Assembly (NCBI GenBank): GCA_035221665.1
Contig: CM069134.1
Span: 23,064,001 to 23,128,000, forward strand
Direction: 5' to 3'
DNA: 64,000 nt
Source of the DNA: Okamejei kenojei
Taxonomy: Eukaryota
In this document: one piece after another, positions 5,280 to 61,792 of the stretch
Layout: each line of letters begins with the position of its first letter
Numbering within the stretch: the stretch's first letter is position 1
Notes under the pieces: generated by a model
The model's input: the letters and a program-made list of their open reading frames with translations, nothing else
Databases searched by the model: none
Told to the model about the DNA's origin: nothing
Position numbers and translations under genes: made by a program

Positions 5280-5340
5280 CTTTAAAAAAGACACGAGATT
5301 ATGTGATATATCAACATAAAGACATTACACAAACAACTGA

Positions 5341-5526
5341 AGGTAGACACAAAATGCTGGAGTAACTCAGCGGGACAGACAGCATCTCTGGAGAGAAGGA
5401 ATGGGTGACGTTTCGGGTCGAGACCCTTCTTCTCTGCAGAGATGCTATGCTGCCTGTCCCGCTGAGTTACTCCAGCATTTTATGTCTACCTTTGATTTAA
5501 ACCAGCATCTGCAGTTCTTTCTTACA
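5341..5526. mobile_element. Inverted pair of Penelope-derived short repeats
   Basis: gtagacacaaaatgctggagtaactcagcgggacag... mirrored by ...ctgtcccgctgagttactccagcattttatgtctac; same sequence as the 3' end of the Penelope fragment at 55640-55770. Confidence 0.75.
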
Positions 5527-11019: not shown

Positions 11020-11305
11020 ATTCATTGATTAATATACAAAAGAACACAAAGTGTTGGAGTAACTTAGCAGGCCAGGCAGCATTTCTGGACATGGATAGGT
11101 GACATTTTGGGTCACCCTTCTTCAGACTGTTTGTTGGAGGGGGTTCGAGAAAGCTGGAAAAGAGGAGAGGCGGGACAAAACAAGGCAACATAGGAGTGGG
11201 TTTTTTTTTTTGTTCTTCAAAATGTAAAAACAAAGAACTGCAGATGTTGGTTAATGATAGGTGGATTAGATGGGTGGATGTTTCAGGTGGGGACCCTTCT
11301 TCAGG
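11020..11305 (-). mobile_element. Two Penelope-derived short repeats
   Basis: gtgttggagtaacttagcagg..cccttcttcagact and gaactgcagatg..tttcaggtggggacccttcttcag. Confidence 0.65.
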
Positions 11306-14256: not shown

Positions 14257-14449
14257 TAAGTTTATTTTTCTCATTGAGATGGTCACCCAAGGAGAGAAGA
14301 CTTTGGCTGACAAAAGCAGGCGGAGTGGGCAAGGGAATTTTCTCCTATTGTAGACCACAAGACATAAGACCTTTGGCCGTAAACGTTGCCTAATTCCTTC
14401 GCTCCATAGATGCTGCCACACCCGCTGAGTTTCTCCAGCAATTTTGTCT

Positions 14450-14782
14450 ACCATAAGACCTTAAGACAAAGGAGCAGAATTAGGACATTTGGTCCATCGA
14501 GTCTGCTTCACCATTCGACCATGGCTAATCTATTTCCTTTTCAACCACATTCTCCTGCCTTCTACCCATAAAACGTTGATGCCCTTACCAATCAAGAACC
14601 TATCAATTGCTGTCATAAAAATACCCAATGACTTTGCCTCCACCATCATCTGTGGCAATTAATTCCATAGATTCACCACCCTCTGGCTAAAGAAATCCCA
14701 CCTCATCTCCAGTCTGAAGGCACATCCTTTTATTCTGAAGCTGTGCCTTCTGGTCCTAGTTTCTCCCACTACAGGAAACATA
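14450..14782 (-). mobile_element. CR1 LINE 3' fragment
   Basis: ggagcagaattaggacatttggtccatcgag.. atctgtggcaattaattccatagattcaccaccctctggctaa. Confidence 0.75.
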
Positions 14783-17456: not shown

Positions 17457-19157
17457 ATTAACCCAGATATCAGGCCATTAGTATGTTCTGCAATTCAATT
17501 ATGAATTATAATTAACTTTTTCACTCAAGTTCCCAAACAGAGTCGAACAGGAGTCCAAAAAGACCCCAAATTGTCTCAGGTACCCTTTATGCAATGAATT
17601 TGTCAGGATATAGAAAGCAAATACAAACCTAACCTACTGCAGATAATCTCTGCTATTTTAGTTAGCTTTATTTTACCCTCATTTCGATTAAAACTCACTA
17701 TACTTACAGCAACTGTTTATTGTGTCCAGATTCCTTTCATTGCTATTACATTTTTCGCACTGGTCAGTTTGCATCACTGTTGATATAGCTGGTAAGTGTG
17801 ATAATATTTCTGCATGTAGCCTTTCCATAAACAGCTGGGGACCAGGAGAACCTCACACAGGAGTCCATACATCAGCGACCTCAAAGTGGAGGCTTTCCAT
17901 CACCTTTAGCTTCCTTTTGGTGCATTTTAAATCAGTTAGTTAATTTGTCATTAATGCCCTCAGACTAGAAATTTCCTCCGAGCTGCTCCTGGGGTTTCTG
18001 CAAAGTTAAAACACAAGAGTGGGAACAGCTGCAAGGAAATTCCCAGTCCTAATCTTGGCCAACAGCTTTAGATGTGGAACATTATGAAATTCTTTCTTAA
18101 AATCCAATTATCTTAATAATGCATACCATCTAAATTAGTTAATTCCTTATAGGATAGTGGACCTGTTGCTTTTAATTTAAGTTGACTATTCATGATGACC
18201 CGTCATTGACAGTGTTCATATGATGCTTCGCAATGGTCATTCTTTAACAACGCTTGACCAGGCAACTACGCTTCATGCCAACTTTTAAAAATATGGCGCA
18301 TATATTGCCGATATTTACAAAACGTTTTAAAATTCCAACTTATTTGAGGATTTTAAAAAGTATCGTGTTGGTTTGTGGAGTCCAGCAACATTTCACATTT
18401 AGTGCATTTCCAAAACATTGCCCTTTCAATACTGCACTACAAGTCAACCAAGCATGTGCCGAGGTCTTTTGGAAGGGGACTCTAACTCATAAACCTCTGG
18501 CAGAGGCAATTATGCAGCCACTGAGACAAGAGCAACACCGAAAGTATTCACACCACATATCTGTTTACTCTTGTTCCTCCAATTAGTCTTCTATATAAAT
18601 AGTTTCTTTAGAAATCCATTTCATCTTCAAAGTAGGTTTCCATCTCCACAGCTAAAATATTTCATTTAAACAGTGTTGCTGAAGTCTATGTTCCTTTTTT
18701 AAAAAAATAATCTTTTACTTCCTTGTGAAGCTAGTGTTCATGAATTTATATTTACTGCTATTTTTATACAATTGTGTTCAACACCCAGATAGCTTTTGAC
18801 TTGCTGCACCACCATTACCTCTTGTGCCGTTCTCCTTTGGCCATGTTCTCCTTTAAAACTTGCTTTTCTCACAATCATTTTCTTGAAATACTATATAGCA
18901 TATAGAGATCAGAAATGTTTATTCTTAATGCACTGGGTTTATACTTTTGCTTCAAAGTAGGGAAACGTGGAACTTTCTGCGAACTGGCAGTTAGTCAGCA
19001 ATTATTATACAAAGTAAATCATGATAGAATTACATCGTGTTCTGTGAGAGGCAATACGTTCCCTGCTGGCGGAGTTGTATTTTAAAATGTGGATTGATTT
19101 TAATGTCCAGTTCTGAGGGAAAGGCCGGTTTATTGAGGTAGATTTTAAAGTGCTTAC

Positions 19158-19358
19158 GGTTGTGAGTAGCTTCTCCACACAGTCAGGTGTCACGCTGTGC
19201 AAGTGGGTCAGGTGGAGCTGGAGATGTATCTTGTTGCTGAGAACATCCTGACAGAGAGGGCAGCAGATGACGGGCTGCATGGAATGCTGGGACATGACAT
19301 GCATCTGGATCCTGTTTGCATCCTTACTGTTATAATTACAGTAAGGGCACTGGTAAAG
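19158..19358 (-). CDS. ZFHX4: ZFHX4 internal exon (201 bp) with two C2H2 fingers
   Basis: ttttgatttcag|CTT..ACC|gtaagc; [67 protein letters not shown]. Confidence 0.95.
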
Positions 19359-19880
19359 CTGAAATCAAAAAGCATTTAATACAATTTATATTAAAAACCG
19401 GTGGTACATAACAGGAAAACCTACTGTGCTCTGCATTTTTTTAAAGTAAGATGTGCATATAATTTCATTCTGTAGAGAGATAGACCAGCACATTCATAAA
19501 ACATGAACTCAAATTGAATTCAATGTTTCTTCCTTCATTTCAACAGGGCCAGTAGCGCACTGATAAAAGAAAATAGCTCATCAAATTGAATGAAGTGTAT
19601 TTCTTTCAAATTGTCTTTGCATTGTGAAAAATTGGATTCACATGTAGTCTGCCATTTTGCAATACTTTGAAATGAGCCTGTTTTCAATGCAACAATTTTT
19701 GGCATCCATTTCAAAAATTAAGACAAATTCCATTTAACTAATTACTGAAACTGAAGGATTGACATCAACTTATGGCGAGGGCAAAATGTCATCATTGTCA
19801 GGGTACCTTGATCTGATAATTTGCTGAAGTGATTGCAAAGAATAATAAGCAAAGCTTAAAAAAAACATTTTGTTTCTTAC

Positions 19881-20014
19881 CTGCTCCTGATTTTGTTTAC
19901 TGTTACCAGATGAACGAGGTCTCTTGGAAGGAAAGTCTTCATCTCCCCCATGCGGCAGCAACCGTTTTTCCACCAAAGGGCTTTCTTGAGATTCTGAATA
20001 TATCACATTAGTTC
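19881..20014 (-). CDS. ZFHX4: ZFHX4 internal exon (134 bp)
   Basis: ttctcttcgcag|GA..CAG|gtaaga; TNVIYSESQESPLVEKRLLPHGGDEDFPSKRPRSSGNSKQNQEQ; phases 1/0 fit. Confidence 0.88.
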
Positions 20015-28145: not shown

Positions 28146-28610
28146 GCGTAGGAAGGAACTGCAGATGCTCGTTTACACCGAAAGACCGAAAATGCTGGAG
28201 TAACTCAGCGGGACAGGCAGCATCTCTGGAGAGTAGGAATGGGTGACGTTTCGGGTCGAGACCATGACCCCACAGATGAGCACCAGGCCGTAATCTCTCA
28301 GACAATTTCTGATTTTATCACTTCCAGCTGTCTGCCCTCCACAGCCTTATAGTTCCCCATCCCCCATCCTCGTTCTCCACCTAGTTTCACTGTACTCATT
28401 AAATTTCACTGATTCTATGCCTCGTTGTCAAACTTCCCCTCAGCAAACAATGATCCATGCTACATTTTCTTTGATCATCGTCCCCTAATATCCCTATTTC
28501 TCCCTCTCCCCTAAATCTTAGTCTGAAGGGTTTTGACACAAACGTTATCCATTCTACAGAGATGTTGCCTGTCCTGCTGAGTTACTCCAGCATTTTGTGT
28601 CTATCTTTTG
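28146..28610. mobile_element. Inverted pair of Penelope-derived repeats
   Basis: Minus copy 28146-28262 and plus copy about 28320-28610 similar to 55430-55770. Confidence 0.7.
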
Positions 28611-29900: not shown

Positions 29901-31039
29901 ACAGCATAAGAGTTTATTACACGCATGGGAAAAATATACACACACTGCCATGTTGAATATTGAAGCTTTCGATTCTCTTAATTATAATTGAATTTACTTA
30001 ACAAAGCTATGTTAGGTGATCTCCAAAGCGAGTTTAATGATATTATGTTGTCCTTTTTTTAAAAAAAACAGTAATCACATTCTCACAAATGTACCCATCA
30101 TCGTGAGCTTTTGCTTTAACAGTTATTTAAAAAACATTTTTTAATGTAATTAGGAAAACTGATGGTTTATGTACATATTATTCTCAAGATAAAATGCACA
30201 GAAAAATGAGATTTGAGGAACTTTGATGACAAAAAGGGGCCCCAAAACATATTCCGATTATGCCTACAGAACCACAATAGTAAATATCAAAATAACATTA
30301 ACATTTGTCTTGTTAAGTTTAACAATGTGAACAATTTCAACAACTGAGTTCTAATTAGTTAATTGTGAAAATCCAATTCTAACTAATTTCAATATTGTTA
30401 AACTATTTTTCTGCGCATGTTATTGGGAGGAAATGCTCAATTAATTTACAAAGATAGACACAAAGTGCTGGAGGAACTCAGCGGGTCACACAGCATTTCT
30501 GGAGATTTTACAAAGTCCACAAGTTTAATTATAAAGATTTGAAAGATTTTCCTCTCCTTCTACACATTTAACTCTGCACCCACACCCCATATACCCTCAA
30601 TCCAATCACCGCTCAGTGTCATTGATCAATGGGAGATAAATTTCTAGAGGCTGGCGGTTGTCCCTCTGCCCTCAAGGTACTCCTCCCGTTATAGACAGAA
30701 CACTGTAAAACAGCAAATGGTTCGATCCTTGGTCACAATCAACAATCTTCCTCTTTCCACCAGATACTGATCAATAGCTCCCTCAGGAGAATCAAGTTCA
30801 AATGTCATCTTCATATGAAAATTGCTCTGTATTCTGACCCCGTGAATGAATATTCTTCTTCCCTTTGTAGTTTTAAGGACCTTCCACAGCACGACATTCT
30901 TTTAAACACAGCATCTTTGTTTTTTGTTGTCAAAGATGAATAACAGGACAAAGACTGGAATACAACCACTATACTGACATCTAGAAAATGCACTGCAACG
31001 ACTTGCCTAGTCTTACTGCAACAACATGTCCCAAACTGA

Positions 31040-31402
31040 TGGACACAAAGTGCTGGAGTAACTCAGTGGGTCAAGCAGCATCTCAGGAGAACATTAGTAG
31101 ATGATGTTTTGGGTAGGGACCCGTATTTAAACTGATGCAGAAGATGGACACAAAAAGCTGGCGTAACTCAACGGGATAGGCAGCATCTCTGGAGAGAAGG
31201 AATGGGTGCCGCTTTTTGTGTCTATCAGGTTTAAAGCAGCATCTACAGTTCCTTCCTACACATTTAGACTGATGCAGTTTGAAGTAGTCTGAATCAGACT
31301 AAAACTTCACCTGTCCATCTTTTCCCTAGAGAAGATGCTCGACTCAGAGTTACTCCAGCACTTGGGTCCTTTTGTGTAAACCAGCATCTGCAGTTCCTTG
31401 TT
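31040..31402. mobile_element. Cluster of Penelope-derived short repeats in both orientations
   Basis: Repeated gacacaaa..gctgg..taactca..cagcatctc and reverse complements. Confidence 0.65.
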
Positions 31403-31696
31403 TCGGCATGTCTCAAACCCGCAGGGACTCCTACCGTTAAATAGGACAAAGGCACCAGGCATCTGGGTACACCACCACCATTTGATTCCCCTCCATGTCC
31501 TATCCTGACCTGAGCATATATTACCGGTGCCAACATCCTGCAATTGTCTACCTAAAGCCACTGTGGCAACACCTTCAGTTGAATGACTATAGCTGTTTGA
31601 AGAGGAGACTTGACACCACCTCCTCATGGGTTATACGAGATGGGCAATAAATGCTGGTCTTCCCAGTTACAAATGAATTATAACTTTACAAGATTA

Positions 31697-32240
31697 TCAT
31701 AGAATCATAGAAAATAGGTGCAGGAGTAGGCCATTCGGCCCTTCGAGCCTGCTCCGCCATGCAATATGATCATGGCTGATCATCCAACTCAGTATCCTGT
31801 ACCTGCCTTCTCTCCATACCCCCTGATCCCTTCAGCCACATGGGCCACATCTAACTCCCTCTTAAATATAGCCAATGAACTGGCCTCAACTACCTTCTGT
31901 GGCAGAGAATTCCACAGACTCAACACTCTCTGTGTGAAAAATGATCTTCTCATCTCGGTCCTAAAAGACTTCCCCCTTATCCTTAAACTGTGACCCCTTG
32001 TTCTGGAGTTCCCCAACATCGGGAACAATCTTCCTGCATCTAGCCTGTCCAACCCCTTAAGAATTTTGTAAGCCTCTATAAGATCCCCAATCAATCTCCT
32101 AAATTCCAGTCAGTACAAGCCGAGTCTATCCAGTCTTTCTTCATATGGAAGTCCTGCCATCCCAGGAATCAGTCTGGTGAATCTTCTCTGTACTCCCTCT
32201 ATGGCAAGAATGTCTTTCCTCAGATTAGGAGACCAAAACG
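31697..32240 (-). mobile_element. Relatively young CR1 LINE 3' fragment (ORF2 C-terminus)
   Basis: GDLIEAYKILKGLDRLDAGRLFP..RTRGHSLRIRGKSFRTEMRRSFFTQRVLSLWNSLP; tail atcatagaatcatagaa. Confidence 0.88.
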
Positions 32241-32367
32241 TTGTTATGTGGTAAGGTCATGGAAATGATTATCTTCATGCAAGTAATAAATAAATTAATG
32301 TTTTAATGCAAAATCCTGAAGATCGTATTTATTCCACCTTCAGAGGGGAAGAGTTAGATTTAACTCT

Positions 32368-32510
32368 TAGGGATAAAGGAATCAAGGGATATGAAGAAAA
32401 AGCAGGAACGGGGTACTGATTTTAGGTGATCAGCCATGATCATATTGAATGGTGGTGCTGGCTCGAAGGGTCGAATGGCCTACTCCTGCATCTATTTTTC
32501 TATGTATCCA
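32368..32510 (+). mobile_element. CR1 3' tail fragment
   Basis: gatcagccatgatcatattgaatggtgg..gaatggcctactcctgcatctatttttctatg. Confidence 0.75.
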
Positions 32511-35209: not shown

Positions 35210-36222
35210 GAGTCATAGAGTGATATAGTGTGGAAACAGGCCCTTCCGCCCAATTTGCCCACACCAGCCAACATGTCCCAGCTACACAAGTCCCACTTGC
35301 CAGCATTTGGTCTATATCCCTCCAAATCTGTCCTATCCATGTGCCTGTCTAACTATACTTCTTAAATGCAGGAATAGTCCCTACCTCAACTACCTCCTCT
35401 GGCAGCTTGTTCCATACATCCACCACCCTGTGTGGGAAAAAGTTACCCCTCAGATTCCTATTTTATCTTTTCCCCTTCACCTTAAAATAGTTTCCCAATC
35501 GCATTGGACTTGAGGAAGTGTGAAAACCTTGTTGCACAGGACTAATGGACATCCCTGGCTTTTGAATGTTGTAATAAAGGCATTGGTAGAGAAGGTGTAA
35601 TGTAGGCGAGGGGTCTCAAAGTCCTCACTGGCCGGGACAGCCTGCAGAAGACCATTGCATCGGCAGTGGGAAGAGACATAATGGAGTCAATAACCGGTAT
35701 TAAAGCCAGAGCAACAGGTGGACAAAATACTTCCCAAACACCCTGGTTTGGAAAAGTGTCCTGATGAGAAAGCTGGAAAGGATGCAGAGAAGATTTGCAT
35801 GGATGTTGCCAGGACTCAAAGGCCTGAGCGATAGGGAAAGGTTGACCAGGCTACGGCTCTATTCCTTGAAGCACAGGAGAATGAGGGGCGATCTTATACT
35901 GTACCAAATCCGTGAGAGGAATAGATTTGGTAAATGCACAGAGTTTCTTGTCCAGAGTAGGGGAATCAAGAACCAGAGGACTAGGTTTAAGGTGAGGGGG
36001 GAAAAAAATTAATAGGAACTTGAAGGCTACCTTTTTCATAAGTGTACGGAACGAGTTGCCATAGGAGGTAGTTGAGGCAGGTAGTATCGCAATGTTTAAG
36101 AAATATTTGGACAGGTACATGGATAGGACTGGTTTAGAGGGATATGGGCCAAATGCAAGGAGATGGGACTAGTGAAATGGGACATGTTGATCAGTGTGGG
36201 CAAGTTAGGCTGATGGGCCTAT
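35210..36222. mobile_element. Head-to-head CR1/HER1 3' fragments (minus 35210-35485, plus 35755-36222)
   Basis: KLERMQRRFAWMLPGLKGLS..RMRGDLI on plus; complementary tails. Confidence 0.8.
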
Positions 36223-36800: not shown

Positions 36801-39800
36801 GCGGGTATCAGGTGTCAAGAGTCAAGAGTGTTTTATTGTTATATCCTGAAACGGAACAATGAAATTCTTACTTGCAACAGCACAACAGATATGTAAATAT
36901 AGTCCTCAGTAGATACTATAGTAACCTTGTATACTGAGACATGTTATGGAGTCAAATTTTTGTGTTGTTTTGGTTACTCATACAAAGAGTTTGCTTAGAA
37001 AAACAGAACATTCCCTTCCTCCCATCACAACATTAGACTTTATTAATTTTTAATCCTTCGCTCCATAGATGCTGCCTCAACCACTGACTGTCTCCAGGAT
37101 TTTTGTCTCCCTTAGACTATTAATTTATGCTTAGAAAATTTGAGGGGCAAACTTAAGATGAGGAGTGCTGATCTGCACTAGTTTTGAGATGCTTTTGTGT
37201 GAAATTCTTCCACATAAAGATATTAACCCACACTTGTTTAAACAGTGAGCAGTGCAATGTCGCCTGAAAGCATTAATCGATTTACTTTAATTAATGTATA
37301 TAGGCATCTCAACTTGCTTCAGAAATCTAATGCTTCAAGCAACCTACACATTCCTTCAATGTCGATTCCTTCTCTCATATTGATTTTGCTGAGAATTTGT
37401 ACAGATATACTAATAATGTGCGTTATACATCAGACTGAAAGACTGAAAACCCTCCTTGAACCAAATGTGTTCACTTCAGGTCTTTTTAACGGGACAGGGA
37501 GGATAGCTGGGAGTGATTACAAGGCCGAGATCTCATTTTTGCTTCAGACAATGCCATCAACCACGAGAATGAATTCAAGCAGTTTATAACAATAATTTAA
37601 ACTACTCAATTAAATTGCAACCCTGAAATCCTTCCTCAGTATTTTCCATTATTTGTAAGTATCATTTCAATTTTGTGGGGGTTTAATTCCGGTTTTGGTT
37701 ATTGCTTTTGCTGTTGGTTTTGCCTTCTCAAGCCAATGCCGATAGTTATTATGATTCCTCTACGATCCTTAATATTATTTAATATACCATCATGCTAATT
37801 CATAGTTATTAACAATGACAGCAATTTGCATTCATGTAGCACTGTTAACAAATTAAGAAGGCCCCAATGCACCTCACAGGAATTTTATCAAACAACATTT
37901 GACACTGGTCCAGAGTGAATACACTCAATAAATATTAAGCATAAATATTATATTAAGCATTAGGAACTAATTATTTAGTTTGTTAGTTGATATAAACAAA
38001 GAAGTGTGTTTTTAAAAATATATATTGCATGTCCTTATCCGTTAGATCAGTTTGGCTTCATATTCTGCCCTTTAATAAAAGGTATAATGCATATGGATCA
38101 GGTGATATTTGGTTGTGTATCTACAGTTTTAAGACTTCATTTGTGTTGCTGTTTTTCAGTTATATTTCATCTTGATTCATATATTCCACAAAGTTTTTAC
38201 ATAATAATTACTGTGATGGTAATTGAGAAGACAGATGTGAGTGTTTTTCTCCATTTAAAAAAAAAATGCTACAAAGAGATGAAATGAAAACCCACACATA
38301 AATAATGCAGTAAGGAACTACAGGATTGGGAATACCTCCTGCACACATACAGTATTTGGTCTAAATATCTTTCAGGATTGAGCGACTAGATCTATGGGGA
38401 GGAGCGATAATATTGATAGACAGAAAAGCATACAACTGATCTGATCTGCGATCTGTCAGTGGGTGAACTGAATTTCATATAACTATATTATATAGTCCAC
38501 ATCTACATCTGTACTGTATGCTTTCTTCACTGCACAGTACAGCAACTGATTATCCCAGCCACAACAAGTGACCACATCCATCACTAAGTGCTTCAATTTC
38601 ATTTAAGGTCACAACATTAAGGCAGCAATCACTAATCAGCCATTTTTTTATGTGCACCTCAGAGAAACTAGCCTAACATATCGTGTTCCAATTGAATTAT
38701 ATAAATGCATTTTAAACAGCCTCACAGGTGTCTAATTTGAATAATTGCAGATTATTTTCCCTCAGAATTTTTCACTGAGCTAATGCTTGGCTCAAAAAGG
38801 CTAATTATGATTAATTAACCAGTTAATCCACTATTTGTGGCACGAAATAGCAAATATTCATTTGCCATGCACTGCATTTTTGGGCCAGATCGTTTGAAGA
38901 TTGCAAGATGCCCCTCTGCCAATGTCATAAAAACAGGAGATGTATTTTTGAATGGATGGAATTATTTTCACCACTCAAGCAGCAAAGGAAGAACAAATGA
39001 TCCAAAAACTGCATGCAGTGTCGATGTAATACCTTAATATTCCATTGGTAAATATTTCTGATATCATTGTCCTTGTAATAGAGCAAGTGCCCTGATGGAA
39101 ACAATTATTGCCCCCATACAAAATAAAATCCTTTCTATTTTGATATTTTCTTCCTTCTCTTTTTTTTATTACAGCATGATTTTAAACATCTGTCTTTTAA
39201 TTGTTTCATCTATGCAGAAGCCGAAGGGTAAAAATTCCCACGTGCCCTCCAACGTGACCTGTGGTTAGACAGAAAGCAGTTTTGCCGGTCATCATGCAGT
39301 TTCCTGTCTTTAACTTCTGAAAGCACTGGAAGCCGAGGTTAATGGCCTTTCCAATCTCTGTGATAAGAATTCATTTTGTTCTATTACCAGCAGTTATCGT
39401 GGAGCATGCTGCACCACTTCAGCACAGTTCAATCAATGAGATAACCTAATGAAGTAACCAGCTGTAGCTCTATTTCCCTGGTCAACTCTATCAGACAAAT
39501 AAAATCCATCAGCCAAACGCCAAGCCCTTCCTCCGCAACATCATCTTCATATGCAAAACCCATATGCATCAGAAAGCATAGGTCCTACAGTTGTATTTTA
39601 ATTTTATTTTAGTTGGAATTTTTTTTAAAGAAAGGGGATGCTGAACAAAATGAACTTGACCATGCAGCATCAAAAGTGACAATAGTGCAATGGAAGTTGG
39701 AGAGATGCAAATATTGTCACACCACAGATTTACTTTACTCAAAAAATCTATTGTATTTCATTTTGTTGAAACTATTAATGAATGATAAGCCTGTTTCATA

Positions 39801-40450: not shown

Positions 40451-40544
40451 CATATCTTGAATACATAAACTACATGAAAGCAATATGTGGCTTTACTTCC
40501 CTCATTCTGTTAAACAAGACAAAGTGTCCCACAATATGATTTAT

Positions 40545-40672
40545 TTAAGAAAGAACTGCAGATGCTGGAAAAATCAAAGGTAGACAAAAAAGCTAGAGAA
40601 ACTCAGCAGGTGAGGCTGCATCTATGGAGCAAAGGAATAGGCGACGTTTCGGGTTGAGACCCTTCTTCAGAA
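40545..40672 (-). mobile_element. Penelope-derived short repeat with intact hammerhead-like core
   Basis: Minus strand reads CTGAAGA A GGGT CTCA ACCC GAAAC GTC (40670-40643). Confidence 0.7.
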
Positions 40673-42080
40673 CTCAATAGGATTTGTACTCTTTTAACTA
40701 GATTAGCTGGTTCTTCAAATCCAAATTAAATGGAAACAATGGCATTTACTTTTGAATGGAAAATAGCACAGGAGAAACCAATAAAAGCTATTATTGGAAT
40801 TCAATTCCATAAGCACATGTAGAAAATGCCTATTTTGTTAAAAGCTCGAGGAAACCAAACAGAACAAAATATGCAATGTGGCTAAAGTCTGGTAGACAGC
40901 TTAGGTAAACGGCACTTTTTTTTTGCCTAATGCTTTATACAATAACATTGTTCTTTCTCCACAGTTAAGGCTTGTCTGAATGAAAACAGGTGTCAATGCC
41001 ATTAGTTCATTGAATGAAGAACAACATCTACTCAACTCTTATTATGTTAGTTTATGTGGTTATTGAACATAATTGTAGCTCTTTCCAATAATAATGAACA
41101 TACCATACAAATTAAACTGAATGTAAACCCATGTTTCTGCCACTATTTCATGAGTTATCCAATTGTGCAAATAGTTAAAAGCAACCACTTGTACTACCAT
41201 TGTACGACTGCAAGAATCTTTGCATGCTTTACCTTCAAATTCAACTAATTGGCCTAAAATTACATTTGCACCATTATCTTCAGGGGGCATTAAAATAGCA
41301 AATCAACCTCCCCACAGCTTCAAAAAGCTCTTTTAAAAAGTATCATGTCATTCATTAATGTCAATTTAAGAACAGTGCTATCAGGCTCCCTCGTGTGAAG
41401 CTAATTTGTTTCAAGAGCTGCAGGCATTGAAAGTTACATTTCTCATGTTAGTTTTAAGTATCATAACAGCAGGAAACAGCTCTTAAAGGGTTAAGCAACA
41501 GTACAAACCACACACTTCCAGCCACTTGGAGAATGTTGATAAGAAATAGGTGTTTGCTCCAATGACGTGAAGAGCTAGTCGCGTCCTGTGGGGAGGGAAC
41601 TGAATGGTAAATGAACAGGCTGATGAAGAGTAGTGCATGCATCAGCCATTTTCTTTTTGCAAAGGTACTTCTGGCTGGAAGTGTCTCGGAAGGTGAATAC
41701 TGTCACATCCTGGCCTCAGATGTGGAATAATGATGATACTGACACAATATTTATAGGTTACATTCCTTGATCTCAGAGTTTATTATCTCACTCAGTCTCG
41801 GCTTACTCAACGCACATGCGTCATGACATCCCTCCTTTACCAGAATTAAACTTTAAATTAATATGTGTTCTTTCTAATATACTTTCCAATTCAATTCTTA
41901 CAAAACATATTTGTGTTTTCATTTGTGTTCCATTAACTCACGAAACAGATGCATTACAACCACAAAACAAATGCAATTTTTTACACTATTGTAACCTTAA
42001 TAAACTCCTTGCTCGTAATAAAAAGTATTATAATAAATAGTATCATAATAAACAGTATCATACTAAACAGTATCATAATC

Positions 42081-42740
42081 TACAACACAAAATCATATCG
42101 CTTGGGGACTCTCCTTTCACGGTTCAGGTCTACCAGCTGGCACAGAAGCATCAGAGCCTGTTGAATCTGCCAAAGAGTTGTCACCCAGACACCTTCTCTG
42201 CTCACCACCTGCATTGCAGTGTGCTTCCTCTGGAACTCTGGTCACCAGCTCGGAAATGTCGTCTGGCCCCTCTGAATCAGTAGCTCTTTGTGGATTTTGG
42301 GCTACCTTGTTTTGAGTGTCCCTGGATATGTACTTTTTGACACTCGATACATTTCTCTTGTAGATACTACCTTCTGGAGACTTGACTGTCACCATGCTGC
42401 CACTCCTCGATACAACATTGTATGGTTGGCAATGGTAAGGAGTGTCTATCTTACCGCCATCATCTCGACTCACTGGCACATCATCCACAGGAATTATTTC
42501 AGAGTGCCTGGCTCGTCATTTCAAGTCGGCATACCATGTTGCCACACCTTTCTTTTCGCCACCACAGTCGCTCAGCTCCTCGTCTTCCATGATCTCACGC
42601 ACTTCTGGTATTTTAGTGCGAATTTTCCTTCCAAACAAAGCTTCTGCTGGACTTTTCCCTGTCATTGAGTGAGTGATCGCCCGATATACAGCAACGTATG
42701 CTAACAGTGCCTCCTTCCAGTTTCCCGTCGGCATGGGTGA
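42081..42740 (-). pseudogene. Gypsy-type LTR retrotransposon integrase C-terminal relic
   Basis: WKEALLAYVAVYRAITHSMTGKSPAEALFGRKIRTKIP..ADLK*RAR..PYNVVSRSGSMVTVKSPEGSIYKRNVSSVKKY; no LTR seen. Confidence 0.75.
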
Positions 42741-45039
42741 TTCGTAATGCAATGGTTTAGTTGCGGTGTATGGATATATACCACCCACCACCCTCACAGG
42801 GAAAAAAAACTTATTGAAGAGGAGAGATATGTCTCAAAAATATACATTTTTGAAGCCTTCCGAGTTAGAAGATGGTTCTTTTGTGACTGAACACCACCAT
42901 GGTTCCATGAACAACACCAGTCAGGTGGAAAATTGTGCTGGAGACAAATTATCTCCATCACCCTCCTATTGACATCATTTAGATGAGTAGGAAGCAAAGA
43001 AAACAGTGGCAGGGTACAAGAAAATCCCACTTAGAAATATCACACAATATTAATGAATGGTTTCAACTCTCCCTGAAACATCCACTAAATTCTTCATATT
43101 TTACAATGCTATTTTCATCGACACAATGGCTCTTTTACTTTGCACAAGTGAACTCGAGGCCGATTTAAATCTTTGAAATGTAAAGATTTCATTCGGAAAG
43201 CTAAAGGATCATGGACATTCCAGGCCATACATGAAAGCAGATGAGATTATTATACCCAGAAGGCATTTTAAAAACATCTGTCAATTTTCTTTTATGGAAT
43301 GTACTGATGATGTGCTATTGATTGCATCTTAAACAAAGTTGTTACAAAACCCAACCATTAACAATTCACATTGATAGGGACAATCAATATTTAAATGACT
43401 CTCTTCATTGATTTAAAATTAATTTTCAATTAAGAGATCCATATTACTTTCAAATGCAACACTTATCCATTCCAGCAAAAAGGTACATTTATTGATACTT
43501 AAACAGCAGCGGCTGCTTTCACATCGATTTGGTAATTTGTGCAGTGATTCGTTAGCGTCACCAGCCTTCCAAATATGTACCACAGCCTTACGACGCCTTA
43601 TAGCACTTGAAGACCCGAGGAAGAGTTTGTTAAATCAGCAGGCTATCACGATTCCACGTGAAATGCAAGGAGCTTGGAAAATAACAACAGGTAGGACTAT
43701 TGAAGCTGCAGGAATTTTAAAAATGCATCTTTGTACAGTTTTTCTAAAATAATGAACACTTCAATGGCGCTAGCTTGCACTACACATGATCCTTTATTTT
43801 GTCTAATTAGACGGCTGAAACCTTTTGTTTCTCTACATGCAATGGATGAAACCTTTTATCAGGCATATTGATTCCTCCAGATCTAAACTATATCTTTTGT
43901 CTCTGAGTGGCTTCTGTAAGATGTCTCAGGGTGTATCATTTAATATAACCCTTGATGCTGTTGCCTCACAGTTGGTGTTACATCTTAACATGAAACTCAC
44001 TGTCTCAACAAAGGGAAATGCTGCTTAGATCTTATTAAGTACAATACTGCTAAAGTGCAATTAAAGTTATTATCACTATTTACATGCCGCCTTGTTAATT
44101 TGCAAATAATTAGAACCAATGCCAGTTTCTAATTAAGACTTGCTGCTGAACAGAGCTGTGTGGTTAATTTAAGGGAACTGAAGAAGTATGCCCTTTAGCC
44201 TGTCAATTTCACAGCACTTTGTAACACACTTCATGTTGCACCAGTAACAAAAGCATTTAGATCGAGTACAGTTTAATACCAAGAGCAGCATATTGTAAAG
44301 TCATGCAATATGTGTACCCTATAAACGTAGCTATTATTTTTATTTGGCAAGATTTGAACAGTAACCAAACTAAAAAAAGAAACAAAACATCATAAATTGG
44401 ATGCATGAATTTAATTGCAATTAAAATAGAAAGGAAGGGTAAATATTTTGAACTAAACAGGTTTATAAGAAAACGGTTTAATGAATAGTTTAAAATTCTG
44501 TTGGAACTGGTTCAACTGGCTTTCTGGATCCTAATTTTCTCTGTACACACAGACCAAAGTTTGTATTGTAATATTCTCAGTTTCAAACCTGGGAAACTTG
44601 GATGAAGGATGAGAAAATCTATTACAAATAGGGATGGTCAGGTATAGTCTCCAGGTGTAGTCTCCTTCCAACTGACTTCTTTTAAAAGCTTAGCACCTCA
44701 AATAAGCATCAATATTTGCAAGTGAACAAATTTAAAGCAGACAACATACCTAGTTTTGGTCGCAATCAAGAGCATGTTATTGGAGGAGAGGTTTGAGGAG
44801 GTATACTTCACATCACCACCCTATTTGGTCAAACCCCCAAGAGGCACAAAGACAATTGAGGTCAATTGGTATAAATAGGAAAGTGTCCAATGTCTAGAGT
44901 CACACCTGATGATTGTAGTGACAGAGAACATGTATTGTTGCCTCACAACATCTCTGCAGGAGTTACACAGTGTGGCCTCTATAATTACAACCTTTTTCAG
45001 CCAGTTCATCACAGATCTTTTCTTTCCTGTGGCCATTCT

Positions 45040-45290: not shown

Positions 45291-45439
45291 GAATAGATAC
45301 AACTCAGTGGGACTAGCAGCATATCTGGATAGAAGGATTGTGTGATGTTTTGTGCTGAGACCCTTCTTCAGACTGGTACCCAGTCAGTATTTCAGCAAGG
45401 AAAGCCTAATTAACACCACAGACCTAATAAAAGATTATG

Positions 45440-50348: not shown

Positions 50349-50626
50349 GATTTTTTTGGCTATTTGCCGGCACCCGTCATAGTCGCAGCAGGTCGCCGAA
50401 AATTTTCAACGTTGAAAATCCAGTGGCGACCAGAAAAACACACGACTCTTTGGGCCACTACTCATGACATGTGACGCCTGTATGGTTGTGAGTAGTCGTC
50501 TAAAGAGTCTTACCTTTCACTGGTCGCCGCTGGATTTTCAACATGTTGAAAATTTTTGGTGACCTGCTGTGACTATGACGGGTGCCGGCAAATCGCCAAA
50601 GAAATTGCATAAGTGGGACAGGCCCT
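50349..50626. mobile_element. Fold-back Harbinger-type MITE lacking its left terminus
   Basis: Ends aagtgggacaggccct|taa like the MITEs at 8461 and 13787; whole body is a long imperfect palindrome. Confidence 0.75.
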
Positions 50627-52120: not shown

Positions 52121-53094
52121 TATGCCGACAAAAACACAATGTGTGTGAGTATGTTTGTACACACAGTGGAATGTTAAATGTAGACATAATTGCATGTAAC
52201 TATGCTGCCTTGTCACAATCACAAAAGAATGGCACAAGCTAACAGGTAACCAGGACCTTACCTCAGCGCCGGTTCACACCATCAGAGGAATAAAGGAGAT
52301 TTTTTTCCCAGTGAAATGCATTGTCTAAAGAATGTTTGGGAAAAATGCTATGCTAAAAAAAAATTCACAATGTCTGAAATTCATTCCTAATTTATGGTAA
52401 CAGCTGCTCATTGTCCTCCTCTCGAGAAAATTGGTTCCCTTGAATGCAGTTCAATTTCAGGAGCAGGGTACAACATAAAGACTATAGCCATCACCTAGGG
52501 ATAAATATCTAGGCAAATATTTATTTTGGTCATCCTTTTATCTTGCCATTCCCAAAGGAAGGGAATTCACTTTCAAGAGACTGCCAGCCAGCCTGAGACC
52601 TCAGACACTGAAATGGCTCTGTTTAGCTTCTCTTTCAGGTCATTATTTAGGTTGCTTATTTACTTATTTAACCCCACTTTCTTTTTCCAATCCAAGGCCA
52701 CTGGTGACCACTTCAGCCCAGGACTGACAATAAAACTGTCAGTGCATTTCCATTGCCAACACGCAAGCACAGATAGCAGTAGCACAATTCTTTGTAGATT
52801 GTAGGAAAGTCTCCAGTGGATTAAATGTGCTCATGTGCTATTCCACATGGAGTACTGTGCAGCCAATGAGAATAATGAGTGCACTGATAACAGGAGGGAA
52901 GGAAGCTTTACCAAGGTCACGAAAATCAAACATAAATCAAACTAATAAAGGACTGCTTAACCAATTACAAAAAAAAATCTCCCCGAGTTATTCTTCCTGG
53001 TAGGTTCTTAACTCCAAATTATTTGTATTGTTTTCCTGGAATATAGGCAAAATGTAGATTTAATATATATTCTGCTTTTACAGTGCCCATGTTA

Positions 53095-54724
53095 CAGTGC
53101 CCTCCATAATGTTTGGGACAAAGACCCATCATTTATTTATTTGCCTCCGTACTACACAATGAGATTTGTAATAGAAAAAAAATCACATGTGGTTAAAGTG
53201 CACCATTGTCAGATTTTATTAAAGGGTATTTTTTATACATTTTGGTTTCACCATGTAGAAATTACATCTGTGTTTATATATGGTCCTCCCATTTCAGGGC
53301 ACCATAATGTTTGGGACACATGGCTTCACAGGCATTTGTAATTGCTCAGATGTGCTTAATTGCCTCCTTAATGCAGGTATAAGAGAGCTCTCAGCACCTA
53401 GTCGTTCCATCACATTTGGAAACTCTTATCGCTGTTGATCAACATGAGGACCAAAGTTGTGCCAATGAAAGTCAACGAAGCCATTATGAAACTGAGAAAC
53501 AAGAATAAAACTGTTAGAGACATCAGCCAGACCTTAGGTTTACCAAAATCAACTGTTTGGAACATCAAAAGAAGAAAGAGCGCACTGGTGAGCTTACTAA
53601 TCGCAAACGGACGGGTAGGCCAAGGAAGACCTCCACAGCTAATGACAGAATGATTCTCTCTATAAGAAAGAAAAATCCCCAAACACCTGTTCGACAGAAA
53701 CACTCTTCAGGAGTCAGGTGTGGATTTGTCAATGACCACTGTCCGCAGAAGACTTCATGAACAGAAATACAGAGGCTACACTGCAAGATGCAAACCACTG
53801 GTTAGCCGCAAAAATGGGATGGACAGGTTACAGTTTGCCAAGAAGTCCTTAAAAGAGCAACCACAGTACTGGAAAAAGGTCTTGTGGACAGATGAGACGA
53901 AGATTTACTTATATCAGCGTGACGGCAAGAGCAAAGTGTGGAGGAGAGAAGGAACTGCCAAGATCCAAAGTATACCACCTTATCTGTGAAACACGGTGGT
54001 AGGGGTGTTATGGCCTGGGCATGTATGGCTCACTTATTTTAATTGATGATACAACTGCTGATGGTTGTAGCATGATGAATTTGTATACATAATTGAAGTG
54101 TATATACAAATCTTATCTGCTCAAGATCAAACAAATGCCTCAAACCCATTGGCCAGCGGTTCATTCTACAGCAAGACAATGATCCCAAACATGCTGCTAA
54201 AGTAACAAAGGAGTTTTTCAAAGCTAAAAAATGGTCAATTTGAGTGGCCAAGACAATCACCCGATCTGAACCCAATTGAGCATGCCTTTTATATGCTGAA
54301 GAGAAAAGTGAAGGGGGCTGGCCCCCAAAACAAGCATCAGCTAAAGATGGCAGAAATACAGGCCTGGCAGAGCAGCACCAGAGAAGACACCGAGCAACTG
54401 GTGATGTCCATGAATCGCAAACTTCAAGCAGTCATTGCATGCAAAGGAAATGCAACAAAATACTAAACATGACTACTTTCATTAACATGACATTGCTGTG
54501 TCCCAAACATTATGGTGCTCTGAAATGGGGAGTAACTATGCGTAAACACTGCTGCAATTTCTACATGGTGAAACCAAAATGTATAAAAACACCCTTTATT
54601 TAAATCTGAAAATGTGCACTTTAACCACATGTGATTTTTTTCCGATTACAAATCTCAAATTTTGGAGTACAGAGGCAAATGAATAAATAATGGGTCTTTT
54701 TCCCAAACATTATGGAGGTCACTG
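53095..54724 (+). mobile_element. Full-length decayed Tc1-family transposon (IR/DR type), 1630 bp
   Basis: TA|cagtgccctccataatgtttgggaca ... tcccaaacattatggaggtcactg|TA; about 220-bp TIRs each with two cataatgtttggga direct repeats. Confidence 0.93.
53444..54466 (+). pseudogene. Tc1 transposase pseudogene
   Basis: MRTK..ISQTLGLPKSTVWNI (HTH), GRPRKT, TVRRRL, VLWTDETKI, LQQDNDPKH, WP..SPDLNPIEH, ..ATKY*; several frameshifts. Confidence 0.9.
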
Positions 54725-54939
54725 TAAATACACCAAAGAATCCAGAATTAGTTGACTTGTACAGGGCATATTTTGTTTATTTATAATGCAATTTATTAGG
54801 CTAATATTCAAATTACTTTGTTGCAGATTCCAAGGACCCAAATTTAAGATGTTCAAAATATTTACAACGATGTCAGTAAATGGCTAACCTCGAGTGGATC
54901 TACCATTAGGGATGTATATCCCATTCAGAAGCAGAAATA

Positions 54940-55770
54940 TATCCGCAACTCCCTTGTCAATTCTTCCCTTCCCTCCCGCTCTACCCCTTCCCCGGGCACT
55001 TTCTCTTGCAACCGCAAGAAATGCTACACTTGTCCCTTCACCTCCCCCCTCCACTCCTTTCAGGGACCCAAGCAGTCCTTCCAGGTCCGACAGAGGTTCA
55101 CCTGCACCTCCTCTAACCTCATCTACTGCATCCGCTGCTCCAGATGCCAGATAATCTGTATCGGTGAGACCAAGCGGAGGCTTGGCGATCGTTTCGCCGA
55201 ACACCTCCGCTCGGTCCGCATTAACCAATCCGACCTCCCGGTGGCTCAGCACTTCAACTCCCCCTCCCATTCCATATCCGACCTCTCGGTCCTGGGCCTC
55301 CTCCACGGCCAGAGTGAGCAACACCGCAAGTTGGAGGAACAGCACCTCATATTCCGCTTGGGGAGTCTGCATCCTTTGGGCTTGAACATTGAATTTTCTC
55401 AATTCTGTTAACCCTTGCTGTCTCCTCCCCTTCCCACCTCTCCCTCAGCCCTCGGGCCCTGGCATTCCCTCTCTCTCTATCTCCCTCCCCCACCCTAGTC
55501 GCACCATCTTCTCATTTTCACACCACAAACAGCTTACAATGGCTTGTTCCCTTTATCATTGATACTTTTTTGCATATCTTTCATTGTTCTTTATCTCTCC
55601 ACATCACCGTCTATATCTCTCGTTTCCCTGATCCCTGACCAGTCTGAAGAAGGGTCTCGACCCAAAACGTCGCCTATCTCCTTCGCTCCTTAGATGCTGC
55701 TGCACCCGCTGAGTTTCTCCAGTCTTTTGTGTACCCTCGATTCTCCAGCATCTGCAGTTCCTTCTTTAAC
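54940..55770 (+). mobile_element. Penelope-like element 3' portion: GIY-YIG endonuclease remnant plus terminal repeat
   Basis: CNRKKCYTC linker, then FTCTSSNLIYCIRCSRCQIICIGETKRRLGDRFAEHLRSV..VAQHFN..RKLEEQHLIFRLGSLHPLGLN..F C* (stop about 55410); terminal repeat has a hammerhead-like motif at 55644-55671. Confidence 0.88.
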
Positions 55771-56117
55771 ACATATATTCTGCACTGTTCCATTTGTGTA
55801 GTGGTTCTTCAACAACAATGCAGAATATGGAGAATATATTTGATAGCAGTGTACAAAGGGCGATAAATATTTGGTATTTAGATGACCAATGTTTGCTAAA
55901 CCTTATATTACGTATCACAAGTTTCCAATCATGTATCTTTAACTTCAATCTTATAATATTTAATTACTGCTTGGAATACTGACATGCATATTTTCCTGAG
56001 CCCCATCTTAATAGCTGCTTTATGAATGTTATTTTCATGGTTTTGCTAACTTTTGTTTCTTTCCTCTTCTCTGCCCTTTACAAATCTTATTGCAGATTGC
56101 CTTTAAGGGACCATATG

Positions 56118-56315
56118 AGTCTGAAGAAGGGTCTCGACCCGAAACATCACCTATTCCTTTTCTCCAGAGATGCTGTCTGACCTGCTGAGTTACTCCAGCG
56201 TTTTGTGTCTATCTTCAGTTTAAACCAGCATCTCCAGAGATGCTGTCTGACCTGCTGAGTTACTCCAGCGTTTTGTGTCTATCTTCAGTTTAAACCAGCA
56301 TCTGCAGTTCCTTCC
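56118..56315 (+). mobile_element. Penelope-derived short repeat with hammerhead core and exact 70-bp tandem duplication
   Basis: CTGAAGA A GGGT CTCG ACCC GAAAC ATC at 56121-56148; 56161-56230 identical to 56231-56300. Confidence 0.8.
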
Positions 56316-58477
56316 CATACATATGAGAGAAGAGATCTCCATCCAATGATTCCCTTCTTTGAAAGCGACATTGTTGAAATAACCTATCTTGGACTCAAGT
56401 TTCCTCTCTTGCTATGGTCTTTCCATACTTGGGAATTACAGAAGGCAATCTAACCTCTTTTTTATTTGTACATATTTTAAACATGCACCATGATTAACAT
56501 TGGATCCATGCTCTATTTTTGCTCACTGCTGTTTGGAATAGCTCGTTGCTCATTCTTGAACATGGATAGGAAAATGGCCCAGAATTTACTGGGATTTCCC
56601 AATAATCCTGCTGGAATAAAGCTACTGGAATTTACACTTATGGGGAACAACTGACCCAGGACTCCTGCATGACTGGGGATGTACAGAACCTCCCAGCCAA
56701 ACACCTCCACTGGACACCACAAGGAATAAAATAATAGATTTCCCACACAACTTTCATCAGGCGAGCTCTAGGGCACCGATTGAATGTGGGTTTTTATGCC
56801 TGTGAGTTGAATGCCAAGAATGAGGTAAGTTACTCTTTCCCTTCACCATGTGCGTTTGCTGTAATGTTTTTTGATGTTTTTGTTGTCGTGCAGGATCTTG
56901 CTGATTAGCTCAAGGTTAGCATCAAAAATGTTTCCCAAACTGCAGATGTCAAAAACCTGAAATAAAAACAGAAAATGCTGGGTAAAAAAAAACCCAGCAT
57001 GTCAGTCAGTCAGTATGGGGGAGGAAGTTGTGTTAAAAGGTTTGCTAAAAGGTTGTTGACTTGAAACATTTTTTGTAGATGTCCATATGTACATGCTGAC
57101 CTAATGAGTATTTCTAACATTTTCTGTTATTATTTTTAGTCTGTATCATTATCTTTTTGAATGTGAATAAGACAGTGTATAATAATATATTTTTGGAGCA
57201 GTAATTCCACTCAGCAACATAATGGCCTTTATTTTTAAGAAAGACTATTATCATGGGCATTCACCATTCCAGCACGCTAATTGATATGTGATTAATTGAG
57301 GGAAACTTGAGGTAAAACGTTATTTTGTGAAGCAAGTGCTGAAGTTGCTACACTAGAATAGGATTCAATTATGAGCAATTCTAACAAAACAAACACATAC
57401 TCTAATGGCATGTGCAGGCAATTATCGTTCTTCCATTTTCCTGATGAAACCACTTAACCATATAGTATCTCAGTAAACTAGCTTTGTATCTGCCTGTTTC
57501 TCATCCTTTGTTGTGCATCAGGGCATTAAACCCAACAGAAGGGCATTAGCTCTATAACTGCCTTGAGGCAAAGGGGATGATTTCAGTATGTTGCCTGTAC
57601 CTGTAGGTTAACTAGGTTGGATCATTATTAGACCTTCAACAAATCCTCAGCTGCAATTTACTTGTAAATATATCGGAAAACTCGCAGAAACCTTAAGATT
57701 TACTTTCTGTGCTTTTAATATATCTTTCTTTTTCAGAGCAAGGGATACTTTAGTAACTTTTTTAAAAATAATTCCCAATTTTCCATAATGATAGTTTAAA
57801 AATATAATTATACTTTGACCTATTAATCACTGGATCTTCTTTAGTTTCCAGTCTGTTTACTGGACAATATAATTTCCACCTTGTGTTGCTCTGACATTTA
57901 TTTTTCCCTTTTTACTCTCTGTTTGTTCATTTCACTTCATTTGTCTCCTCGCCTGTAATCTCTTACTGGTCTTTTATTTCAGCTTCTTGCTGCCTTGTTG
58001 TTTCAGCTGGAGAGAAAGTGGGCGATGGATTCTTGGGCTGCAGTTGTTTGGCAGTGCAGTGGTTCCTTGGCTATCAGTTCCTCTGGCATGGTCAGGGAGT
58101 GCTCGGTTTAGCAACATTGAAAAGGGACCTAAAAAGTTGGAACCAAAATAGTAACTGGGACTAAATTGAAAGCATTTACGAAAGGAATGTAATTACTGCA
58201 GCTGCTTAAGAAGTAATAAGTACATTTGTGTTTTCAAAAGTCTAAAAATGGGATTGCAGATGAAGTAAACGTCAAGCACGGTTATGGGGAATGGGTCAAA
58301 ATGTAAGGTAGGGCTTGGGCTCAGTAGTAACAGAATAGCCACTCTGCCCAAGTCCAAGGTGGGAATGATGAAGACCGTGAGTTTGAGTTGGGTTACTACC
58401 TCCAGACCTACTGTGAAGTCAGCAGTGAAAAATATAACATCATAGCCAGCTGTTAAGTAGATCAAACTATCTGTTAT

Positions 58478-58570
58478 AGGCACAAAAAGCTGGAGTAATT
58501 CAGCGGGGCAGGCAGCATCTCTGGAGAGAAGGAATGGGCGATGTTTTGAGTCGAGACCCTTCTTCAAACT
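58478..58570 (-). mobile_element. Penelope-derived short repeat
   Basis: cacaaaaagctggagtaattcagcggggcaggcagcatctctggag..tcgagacccttcttcaa. Confidence 0.7.
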
Positions 58571-61577: not shown

Positions 61578-61792
61578 AGAAAGGAACCGCAGATGCTGAT
61601 TTATACCAAAAAAATAGACACATAGTGCTAGAGTAACTCAGCGAGTCAGGCAGCATCTCTGGATAAAAAGCATGGGTAACGTTTTGGGTCAGGACTGTGT
61701 GAAGAAGGGTCCCGACCCGAAACATCACCCATCCTTTTTCTCCTGAGATGCTGCCTGACCCGCTAAGTTACTCCCGCACTTTGTGTCTATTT
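61578..61792. mobile_element. Palindromic inverted pair of Penelope-derived repeats
   Basis: aaaatagacacatagtgctagagtaactcagcgagtcaggcagcatctc mirrored by gagatgctgcctgacccgctaagttactcccgcactttgtgtctatttt. Confidence 0.75.

Follow-up and report, generated by a model that had tools for sequence, protein, structure and literature searches.

A minimal hammerhead motif in the terminal repeats of abundant Neptune-type Penelope-like elements, with likely inactive copies in a ZFHX4-like gene

Introduction

The terminal repeats (pLTRs) of metazoan Penelope-like elements (PLEs) contain minimal type I hammerhead ribozymes (min-HHRs) with an extra nucleotide after A9, a palindromic helix III and, at the lower end, a helix I of about 2 bp (Cervera and de la Pena 2014, PMC4209133). 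These are the very features that the original prediction assigned to the motif studied in this work, and all of them were already in print for PLEs. A 2-bp helix I is found in the Culex, Drosophila and Oikopleura rows of Fig S3 of that paper, which describes single min-HHRs as not cleaving and their dimers as weak; among the rows of Fig S3 and Table S1 that we examined, none is chondrichthyan. Two clades of PLEs, Neptune and Nematis, are marked by a Cys linker and a CCHH motif (PMC8557442), and truncation, inverted pLTRs and an optional tail constitute the standard pattern of PLE copies (PMC8969392, PMC3846280). For a PLE of the anole, the tail has been explained by two internal start sites of the reverse transcriptase (RT); its hammerhead needs protein, hammerhead mutants were without effect on insertion in vitro, and no RNA-seq read ended at the cleavage site (PMC11167929).

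Hammerheads also occur outside intact PLEs. For retrozymes, an origin from pLTRs has been reported, with one chondrichthyan among the hosts, and one of nine Xenopus dimers cleaved in the same study (10.64898/2026.07.22.740005). Conserved intronic hammerheads are known in amniotes, and G12 acts as the general base of the ribozyme (PMC6155905). PLEs have expanded in whale shark introns (10.1101/443036); beyond the one chondrichthyan in the retrozyme preprint, our literature searches returned no paper on PLE hammerheads of cartilaginous fish. Here, we analyze a hammerhead-bearing repeat in a 64,000-nt stretch of Okamejei kenojei DNA, referred to as the window, in which all positions are counted from its first letter.

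Results

A truncated Penelope-like element of an abundant family

Positions 54942..55772 on the plus strand hold a 5′-truncated Neptune-type PLE, delimited by contig depth and protein homology, that consists of the end of an ORF, the 3′ UTR/pLTR, a hammerhead and a tail. The ORF end (54942..55411, +) encodes the remnant of a GIY-YIG endonuclease (EN) with a C-x4-C-xx-C linker and a CCHH motif, as seen in the ORF list, in the alignment and in PF01541-bearing relatives. Homology confirmed this remnant, which had been predicted from the letters: It is 58–64% identical to proteins of whale shark, Mobula and Hypanus, its closest named relatives, and matches a profile built from 78 full-length RT+EN relatives at E=1e-57; a Pfam scan called no family on it. 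The tyrosine position of the YIG is occupied by Cys, and the linker cysteines C54-C59-C62 are invariant in the protein alignment with relatives. In the close relatives P0001 and P0009 the RT lies upstream in the same ORF; here it has been lost by the 5′ truncation, and we encountered no full-length element of this family. On these motifs and relatives, rather than on a tree, we assign the element to the Neptune type. No ORF start could be placed downstream of the hammerhead.

A single DNA run from the same or a near-identical organism contributed 321,224 contig pieces to a 1.4-kb stretch. Summed contig depth, which is not equal to copy number, amounts to 9–23 on the unique flanks and to 0.6–2.6 million over the ORF and 3′ UTR, rising from about 20 to more than 600,000 in the bin from 54942 and dropping in the bin from 55770. 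It reaches 4.7–6.4 million over the hammerhead bins (55632–55723) and up to 10.6 million over a second copy whose core starts at 56121. The PLE family is extremely abundant, which is all that depth shows; the Penelope origin that had been proposed, supported by GIY-YIG, Cys linker and CCHH motif, and the very high copy number are both borne out. One contig of an RNA library spans 55244–55722 with 4 differences and 4 gaps and crosses the cleavage site. All sequencing runs consisted of contigs; two of them, X16 and X17, are RNA by assumption only, and X17 is probably DNA. An RNA library (run X19) contains contigs of related but different PLE families with a summed depth of 3,500–4,700 over the tail (56161–56228), some of which run into a GT repeat; the hammerhead 3′ strands of these families differ and could give a longer helix I.

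Anatomy of the hammerhead and its copies

The hammerhead lies 232 nt past the EN stop (55411) and, by sequence reading and fold, occupies 55642..55673 (+). Its helix I comprises 2 bp (55642-43 with 55672-73) and encloses the first core box CTGAAGA (55644-50), an extra A (55651), a 4-bp helix II GGGT/ACCC (55652-55/55660-63) with the loop CTCG, the second box (55664-66), the palindrome that provides the 4-nt helix III stretch (55667-70), and C17 (55671). At both 55644 and 56121 we found the boxes, the extra A and the 4-bp helix II as originally described. In the copy behind the GIY-YIG remnant, G12 is changed to A at 55664 and the core is therefore broken. Helix I of this motif amounts to 2 bp (GU/AC or GU/GC) with a mismatch next to it, and the extra nucleotide between A9 and 10.1 is accompanied by the G10.1-C11.1 pair (GC in 13 and GU in 1 of the 14 rows of the covariation alignment described below). 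The majority row of the aligned window copies reads ACGU-C, the palindrome being broken in 6 of 14. In the DNA run, G is the majority letter both at 55664 (G12; 3.88M of 5.55M summed depth) and at 56146 in the palindrome (4.33M of 7.57M).

All 11 positions named in the original prediction carry the repeat. The three sites it had singled out for an intact core (40670 and 11304 on the minus strand, 56121 on the plus strand) do have both boxes intact, and no other site in the window does. The two AUC copies among these, 56121 and 11304, do have intact boxes but read ACAU instead of ACGU, which breaks the palindrome needed for a helix III between dimer partners. A loose hammerhead pattern matched the window 8 times against 1.43 expected, a number reached by none of 100 shuffles; 3 of the 8 matches fall within the repeat. 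An Rfam scan of the window at E<=10 returned no hammerhead family. Two other Rfam matches were rejected: Plastid-psbJ-4 (E=0.0015, below gathering) corresponds to an inverted pLTR pair at 5361–5472, and Hairpin-meta2 is noise (17.6 bits vs 210).

In total, 20 repeat segments were scored in the window. The solo pLTR at 56120..56319 (+), with both boxes intact (56121–56148) and ACAU, is flanked by an 8-bp target duplication and contains a 70-bp internal tandem duplication (56161–56307) that excludes the hammerhead. The solo pLTR at 40543..40674 (−; 11-bp target duplication, 1 mismatch) is the only copy that keeps both boxes and the ACGU palindrome (40643–40670); a single helix I pair is in register. 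G12 is changed in the solo copy at 58478..58563 (−), whose 16-bp target duplication (1 mismatch) has an end similar to the 5′ terminus of the element, and also in the decayed copy at 45301..45377 (−), which has a broken helix II and for which no target duplication was found. A short copy at 14374..14451 (+; 11-bp target duplication) is devoid of the first box, and two fragments, 30454..30504 (−; 11-bp target duplication, 1 mismatch) and 37052..37117 (+; target duplication), stem from the part downstream of the hammerhead. The only same-strand pair, 179 nt apart at 11040..11304 (−), is damaged in both members: The 11304 copy has both boxes, ACAU and no helix I, and in the 11125 copy G12 is changed and helix II shortened. 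The remaining insertions are head-to-head inversions. The pair at 5340..5521 has a truncated first box and a perfect 15-bp target duplication, the pair at 61578..61789 has lost C3 and reads ACAU (12-bp target duplication, 1 mismatch), and the compound insertion at 31037..31406 is composed of four pLTR segments that face in either direction (12-bp target duplication, 1 mismatch). Finally, 28147..28607 (14-bp target duplication) combines an inverted pLTR (−), a PLE ORF piece and a direct pLTR with a damaged core (28523); its positions 28260–28409 weakly match the pre-RT part of a PLE ORF (tblastn E=2e-4 with P0016, profile E=0.05), and it is an internally deleted element.

The hammerhead in distant relatives

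For comparison, 80 loci with related EN genes (38–58% identical at the protein level) were taken, of which 15 with less than 150 nt downstream were dropped from the motif count. Among the remaining 65, 27 carry the motif in sense orientation no more than 700 nt downstream of the EN gene and 1 carries it in antisense orientation, against a letter-shuffle mean of 0.06. All 80 loci together yielded 33 motif matches with a helix II of at least 4 pairs; 32 of these have the extra nucleotide, 16 end in ACGUC, and 26 have a helix I of 3–6 pairs. The commonest motif has the same helices I and II as those printed for the Neptune element of Acropora digitifera (PMC4209133, Table S1 and Fig S3). A covariation alignment of 14 rows, composed of 3 window copies and 11 hand-picked relatives that pass the helix II filter, is paired in 95.7% of its cells (slid controls, 7–47%) and contains compensatory changes in 4 of 5 tested pairs, including both pairs of helix I. 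The pairing of helix II is partly by construction, because the rows had passed the helix II filter; pairing of helix I was not demanded by the filter, and both of its pairs still covary. Moreover, three window families share the hammerhead, although alignments of the 120 nt upstream are no better than those of shuffled sequences. This conservation indicates that the hammerhead is real at the level of families. Exact DNA patterns had no match in metagenome or viral contigs. One locus (L032:1988-2042, −) has a hammerhead-like motif on the strand opposite its EN gene that is unlike the PLE minimal form, with a longer helix III-like stretch and no extra nucleotide.

The comparison also bears on the reading that the hammerhead is a vestige in this lineage, with a helix I shrunk below function and the segment kept as a promoter or for binding of the RT protein. 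The 2-bp helix I with its adjacent mismatch is in line with it, and so is the poor predicted dimer: In folding calculations, which leave out Mg2+ and tertiary contacts, the active dimer with the 55644 pairing reaches -6.9 kcal/mol vs -26.6 for the best fold, and that of the 40670 copy -0.1 kcal/mol, compared with -12 to -26 kcal/mol in 4 of 5 relatives tested (the fifth, with a broken palindrome, gives -1.7). Because the dimer folds worse than in relatives, the master motif itself may have little activity or none. The anole mutants that still insert in vitro and the lack of RNA-seq ends at that site (PMC11167929) agree with a vestige, as does a related family of the RNA run (loose ends at 56163) with a different 3′ strand that could pair further. 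On the other hand, the boxes, the extra A, helix II, the palindrome and both helix I pairs have been kept with compensatory changes relative to distant relatives, and PLE hammerheads with a 2-bp helix I have been published (PMC4209133). We regard a vestige as unlikely.

Origin of the short copies

With insertion boundaries set by eye, target duplications scoring at least 10 were found for 9 of 13 insertions compared with 0.9% of 992 random pairs. The 3′ ends, likewise read by eye, fall into two groups at about 90–100 and 130–140 nt after C3. At least three families contribute to the short copies, which are pLTRs in truncated, solo or inverted form. Long forms that extend into upstream PLE sequence occur as well, in the window as the 55644 copy (with EN) and the 28523 copy (with the ORF piece of weak similarity), and also among the contigs of the DNA run. 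The separate non-autonomous ribozyme family that had been postulated is hence not upheld. Given the pattern of truncation and inversion as well as the ORF piece in 28147–28607, the short copies are best explained as having arisen from autonomous families rather than as a separate SINE or retrozyme.

A self-propagating SINE- or retrozyme-like element made of hammerhead and tail and mobilized in trans by the PLE enzyme would account for several observations: Summed depth over hammerhead and tail is 2–5 times that over the EN region, the copies have a common start (see below), solo copies have target duplications of their own, and pLTR-derived retrozymes have been reported, one chondrichthyan included (10.64898/2026.07.22.740005). 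However, 5′ truncation alone enriches the 3′ end, the short copies come in at least three family flavors for which long forms exist, and the window contains neither two intact copies in tandem nor tandem units that each have a complete hammerhead, the sole tandem duplication (56161–56307) being the one without it. Such an element thus appears rather improbable, and descent of the short copies from autonomous families remains our preferred reading.

The 5′ edge of the ribozyme

Directly before the core, a pyrimidine-rich tract ends in YAG-T (55600..55645, +). This arrangement is common to three otherwise unalignable families (YAG-T at 55639–55645, 28517–28524 and 11124–11130; tract 73–80% C/T), which suggests a function. 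The initiator consensus is YYANWYY, and the tract with its YAG-T fits an initiator or a 3′ splice acceptor. In 12 of the 20 segments, alignments start within -6..+2 of C3 (one of them ambiguous, -3 or -11). For three of the 12 (55644, 28523, 11125) this point is only where family-specific upstream sequence begins; for three others (56121, 40670, 58565) the target duplication abuts the start, which is a true insertion end, and another 2 mark the junctions of inversions. At 56119 and 56120, respectively, 1557 and 1122 contigs of the DNA run leave the reference and continue into AT-rich flanks with 0.32–0.33 agreement; none among the rows listed leaves at the cleavage site, and the contig reference itself ends at 56119–56120. 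These contigs lend moderate support to a start there. One copy of the 20 (31222, −) starts to align near the cleavage site when one of three references is used and, as a single case, was not counted as a signal. By eye, solo hammerhead copies in three related loci (L023:3414-3467, L078:3571-3624, L058:4376-4429) seem to start 6–14 nt before the core. A bacterial promoter scan, a method not applicable to animal DNA, had no match. An Inr-like TCACT has been described in a rotifer pLTR (PMC3846280/PMC8969392).

From the motif and the copy ends, YAG-T is likely a transcript start about 3 nt before the core, with a splice acceptor as the rival. The start site is favored by short copies without a shared upstream exon and by the unspliced RNA-library contig at 55244–55722. 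With a transcript starting there, helix I of the 5′ repeat could reach 3 bp at most, and its length would thereby be explained. If YAG-T were instead a 3′ splice acceptor, splicing would supply a 5′ strand that lengthens helix I and switches the ribozyme on or off. Apart from the tract and YAG shared by the three families, this reading can draw on the D. virilis Penelope intron, whose 3′ boundary coincides with the 5′ end of a 2-bp helix I; in that element, however, helix I stays at 2 bp in both forms (PMC4209133). Moreover, among the joints listed, which come from contigs only, none leads into 55643 or 56120, the RNA-library contig is unspliced at this place, short copies abut target duplications, the loose contig ends at 56119–56120 are AT-rich and agree poorly (0.32–0.33), and distant relatives mostly lack an AG at the equivalent place. 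We regard splicing at YAG-T as unlikely.

Host gene and decay of the copies

A homology search placed all coding exons of a ZFHX4-like zinc-finger homeobox gene in the window on the minus strand: one at 19152..19361 (−; 84% to platypus ZFHX4, 67% to a fish ZFHX3) and, by protein homology, further ones near 25295–25429, 19878–19994, 2570–2986 and 2–1330 (−). The first of them in the gene's direction aligns to about residue 930–1010 of a full-length relative, and no exon upstream of it was found within the 64-kb window; 25430–64000 is therefore likely one long intron. The window has one assembly gap of 227 N (21566–21792). It also hosts other repeats: a Tc1-type transposon remnant at 53092–54727 with long terminal inverted repeats and a transposase piece (Pfam HTH_Tnp_Tc3_2), non-LTR reverse transcriptase fragments at 15648–16621 (−; Pfam RVT_1 E=3e-15), and MITE-like short elements at 13782–14261 and 50350–50605 with terminal inverted repeats of 55–61 bp, the former with an AAGGG-CTGTCCCAC-like end and the latter beginning similarly. 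The ORF at 3688–4074 (+), for which Pfam returned nothing, resembles the restriction-like endonuclease end of an R2-type retrotransposon, and we take the ORF pieces at 42117–42833 (−; no significant Pfam match) to resemble the integrase end of an LTR retrotransposon. At 31711–32498 and 35238–36220, 3′ fragments of CR1-like LINE/SINE type are arranged as inverted pairs.

Among the 15 aligned window copies, an A replaces G12 in 6 of 13 and G16.2 in 6 of 14. Both positions lie within CpG sites, which supports the CpG-type decay noticed at the outset. The absence of excess conservation in the core had been named in advance as an argument against a functional ribozyme, and in this small window sample no significant excess was detected: Over all columns of the 15 copies, divergence is 16/127 in the core vs 108/776 downstream, and outside CpG sites it is 9/114 (7.9%) vs 102/748 (13.6%; p=0.10), where the downstream figure includes family differences. 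Relative to the host pre-mRNA, 11 segments are sense and 9 antisense (p=0.82); of the 11 sense segments, both boxes are preserved in 2 and the palindrome in 1. Since the ZFHX4-like gene is on the minus strand, the copies at 55644 and 56121 lie antisense to it. As judged from their sequences, the scattered copies are most likely not functional as ribozymes, and the traits of a domesticated intronic hammerhead of the RECK type, such as sense orientation combined with a full three-helix motif, are not seen in the window, where copies are antisense or damaged and decay looks neutral. That intronic copies act as self-cleavage sites affecting the ZFHX4-like pre-mRNA, as the original prediction had it, is very improbable: Conserved intronic hammerheads are known in amniotes (PMC6155905) and the sense-strand copy at 40670 keeps both boxes and ACGU, but this copy has a single helix I pair in register, no intact partner nearby and a predicted dimer of -0.1 kcal/mol, the other sense copies are mostly damaged, strand bias is absent, and published monomers do not cleave while dimers are weak (PMC4209133), 8 of 9 Xenopus dimers did not cleave (10.64898/2026.07.22.740005) and the anole hammerhead needs protein (PMC11167929).

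Discussion

We consider it very probable that the repeat is the terminal repeat of very abundant Neptune-type PLEs with the known minimal type I hammerhead, which is likely selected in active master elements, and that the copies in the ZFHX4-like gene are likely inactive by-products of transposition undergoing CpG decay. The following sequence of events would be consistent with our data: Transcription of the PLE likely initiates at an internal promoter, about 3 nt ahead of the hammerhead core. The RT-endonuclease would then nick AT-rich DNA, and reverse transcription would proceed from sites about 90–100 or 130–140 nt past the core; the mechanism of two RT start sites has been shown for the anole PLE (PMC11167929), and here the corresponding 3′ ends are seen. 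Priming on the 3′ repeat would give 5′-truncated copies such as 54942–55772, and priming on the 5′ repeat, or early truncation, the solo and inverted copies of 50–200 bp. The templates were uncut, because copies span the cleavage site. By analogy with published PLE hammerheads, cleavage would occur only as a dimer via the ACGU palindrome, probably with the help of protein. After insertion, decay would strike first at G12 and the palindrome, where G-to-A changes are seen and methyl-CpG is the probable cause.

These findings do not suggest gene regulation by the ribozyme: In the copies, either the catalytic guanine or the palindrome is damaged, and both lie in CpG sites. Specialists may rather ask why the 5′ edge of the ribozyme is the common starting point of three families and many short copies, since this edge bears on what PLE hammerheads do. 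As a tentative and on balance unlikely idea, the hammerhead might be the very 5′ end of the retrotransposon mRNA in this cartilaginous-fish lineage: A start 3 nt before the core would cap helix I at 2–3 bp, protein-assisted cleavage would remove a 31-nt capped leader and thereby switch the RNA between translation and packaging or decay, and the short copies that run from hammerhead to tail would have arisen in large numbers by internal priming on the 5′ repeat; alternatively, YAG-T would be a splice acceptor and splicing would complete helix I. Either version, if true, would give PLE hammerheads a testable role.

Compared with known systems, the retrozymes that do not belong to LTR elements are equally non-coding, pLTR-related, hammerhead-bearing dispersed monomers, but they are defined by tandem units each with a hammerhead (10.64898/2026.07.22.740005), of which the window has none; among 15 joints listed, all from contigs, no circle joint falls at the cleavage site. 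The retrozymes of the chondrichthyan in that preprint may include the PLE family of the window. Penelope of Drosophila virilis has the same 2-bp helix I and an AG-ended tract just before it; there an intron has been shown and helix III bears a small insertion (PMC4209133), whereas splicing at our motif is putative. With Poseidon PAc of Anolis (Frangieh et al. 2024, PMC11167929) the element shares two 3′ end points about 40 nt apart, the tail and copies of uncut RNA, although PAc belongs to another clade and its ORF starts at stem II, a start that has no placeable counterpart here. Neptune EN+ PLEs (Craig et al. 2021, PMC8557442) have the same C-terminal GIY-YIG, CX2-5CxxC linker and CCHH motif, a canonical hammerhead located close to the 3′ end, and inverted pLTRs as well as a tail; only the 3′ end is available here, Nematis shares the linker and is a candidate too, and the insertions lie in AT-rich unique DNA with 8–16 bp duplications, not in microsatellites. 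Closest of all are the min-HHRs of metazoan PLEs (PMC4209133), with which our motif has in common CUGANGA with one extra nucleotide, G10.1-C11.1, GAAA, the palindromic 15.2–16.2 without a helix III loop, a short helix I, the position in the pLTR downstream of the EN gene and thousands of single dispersed copies; within the published list, its helix I is on the short side (2 bp, of which not both are G-C) and its helix II has 4 bp. The known minimal hammerhead of PLEs, whose presence was to be expected, is thereby extended to a very abundant family of a cartilaginous fish.
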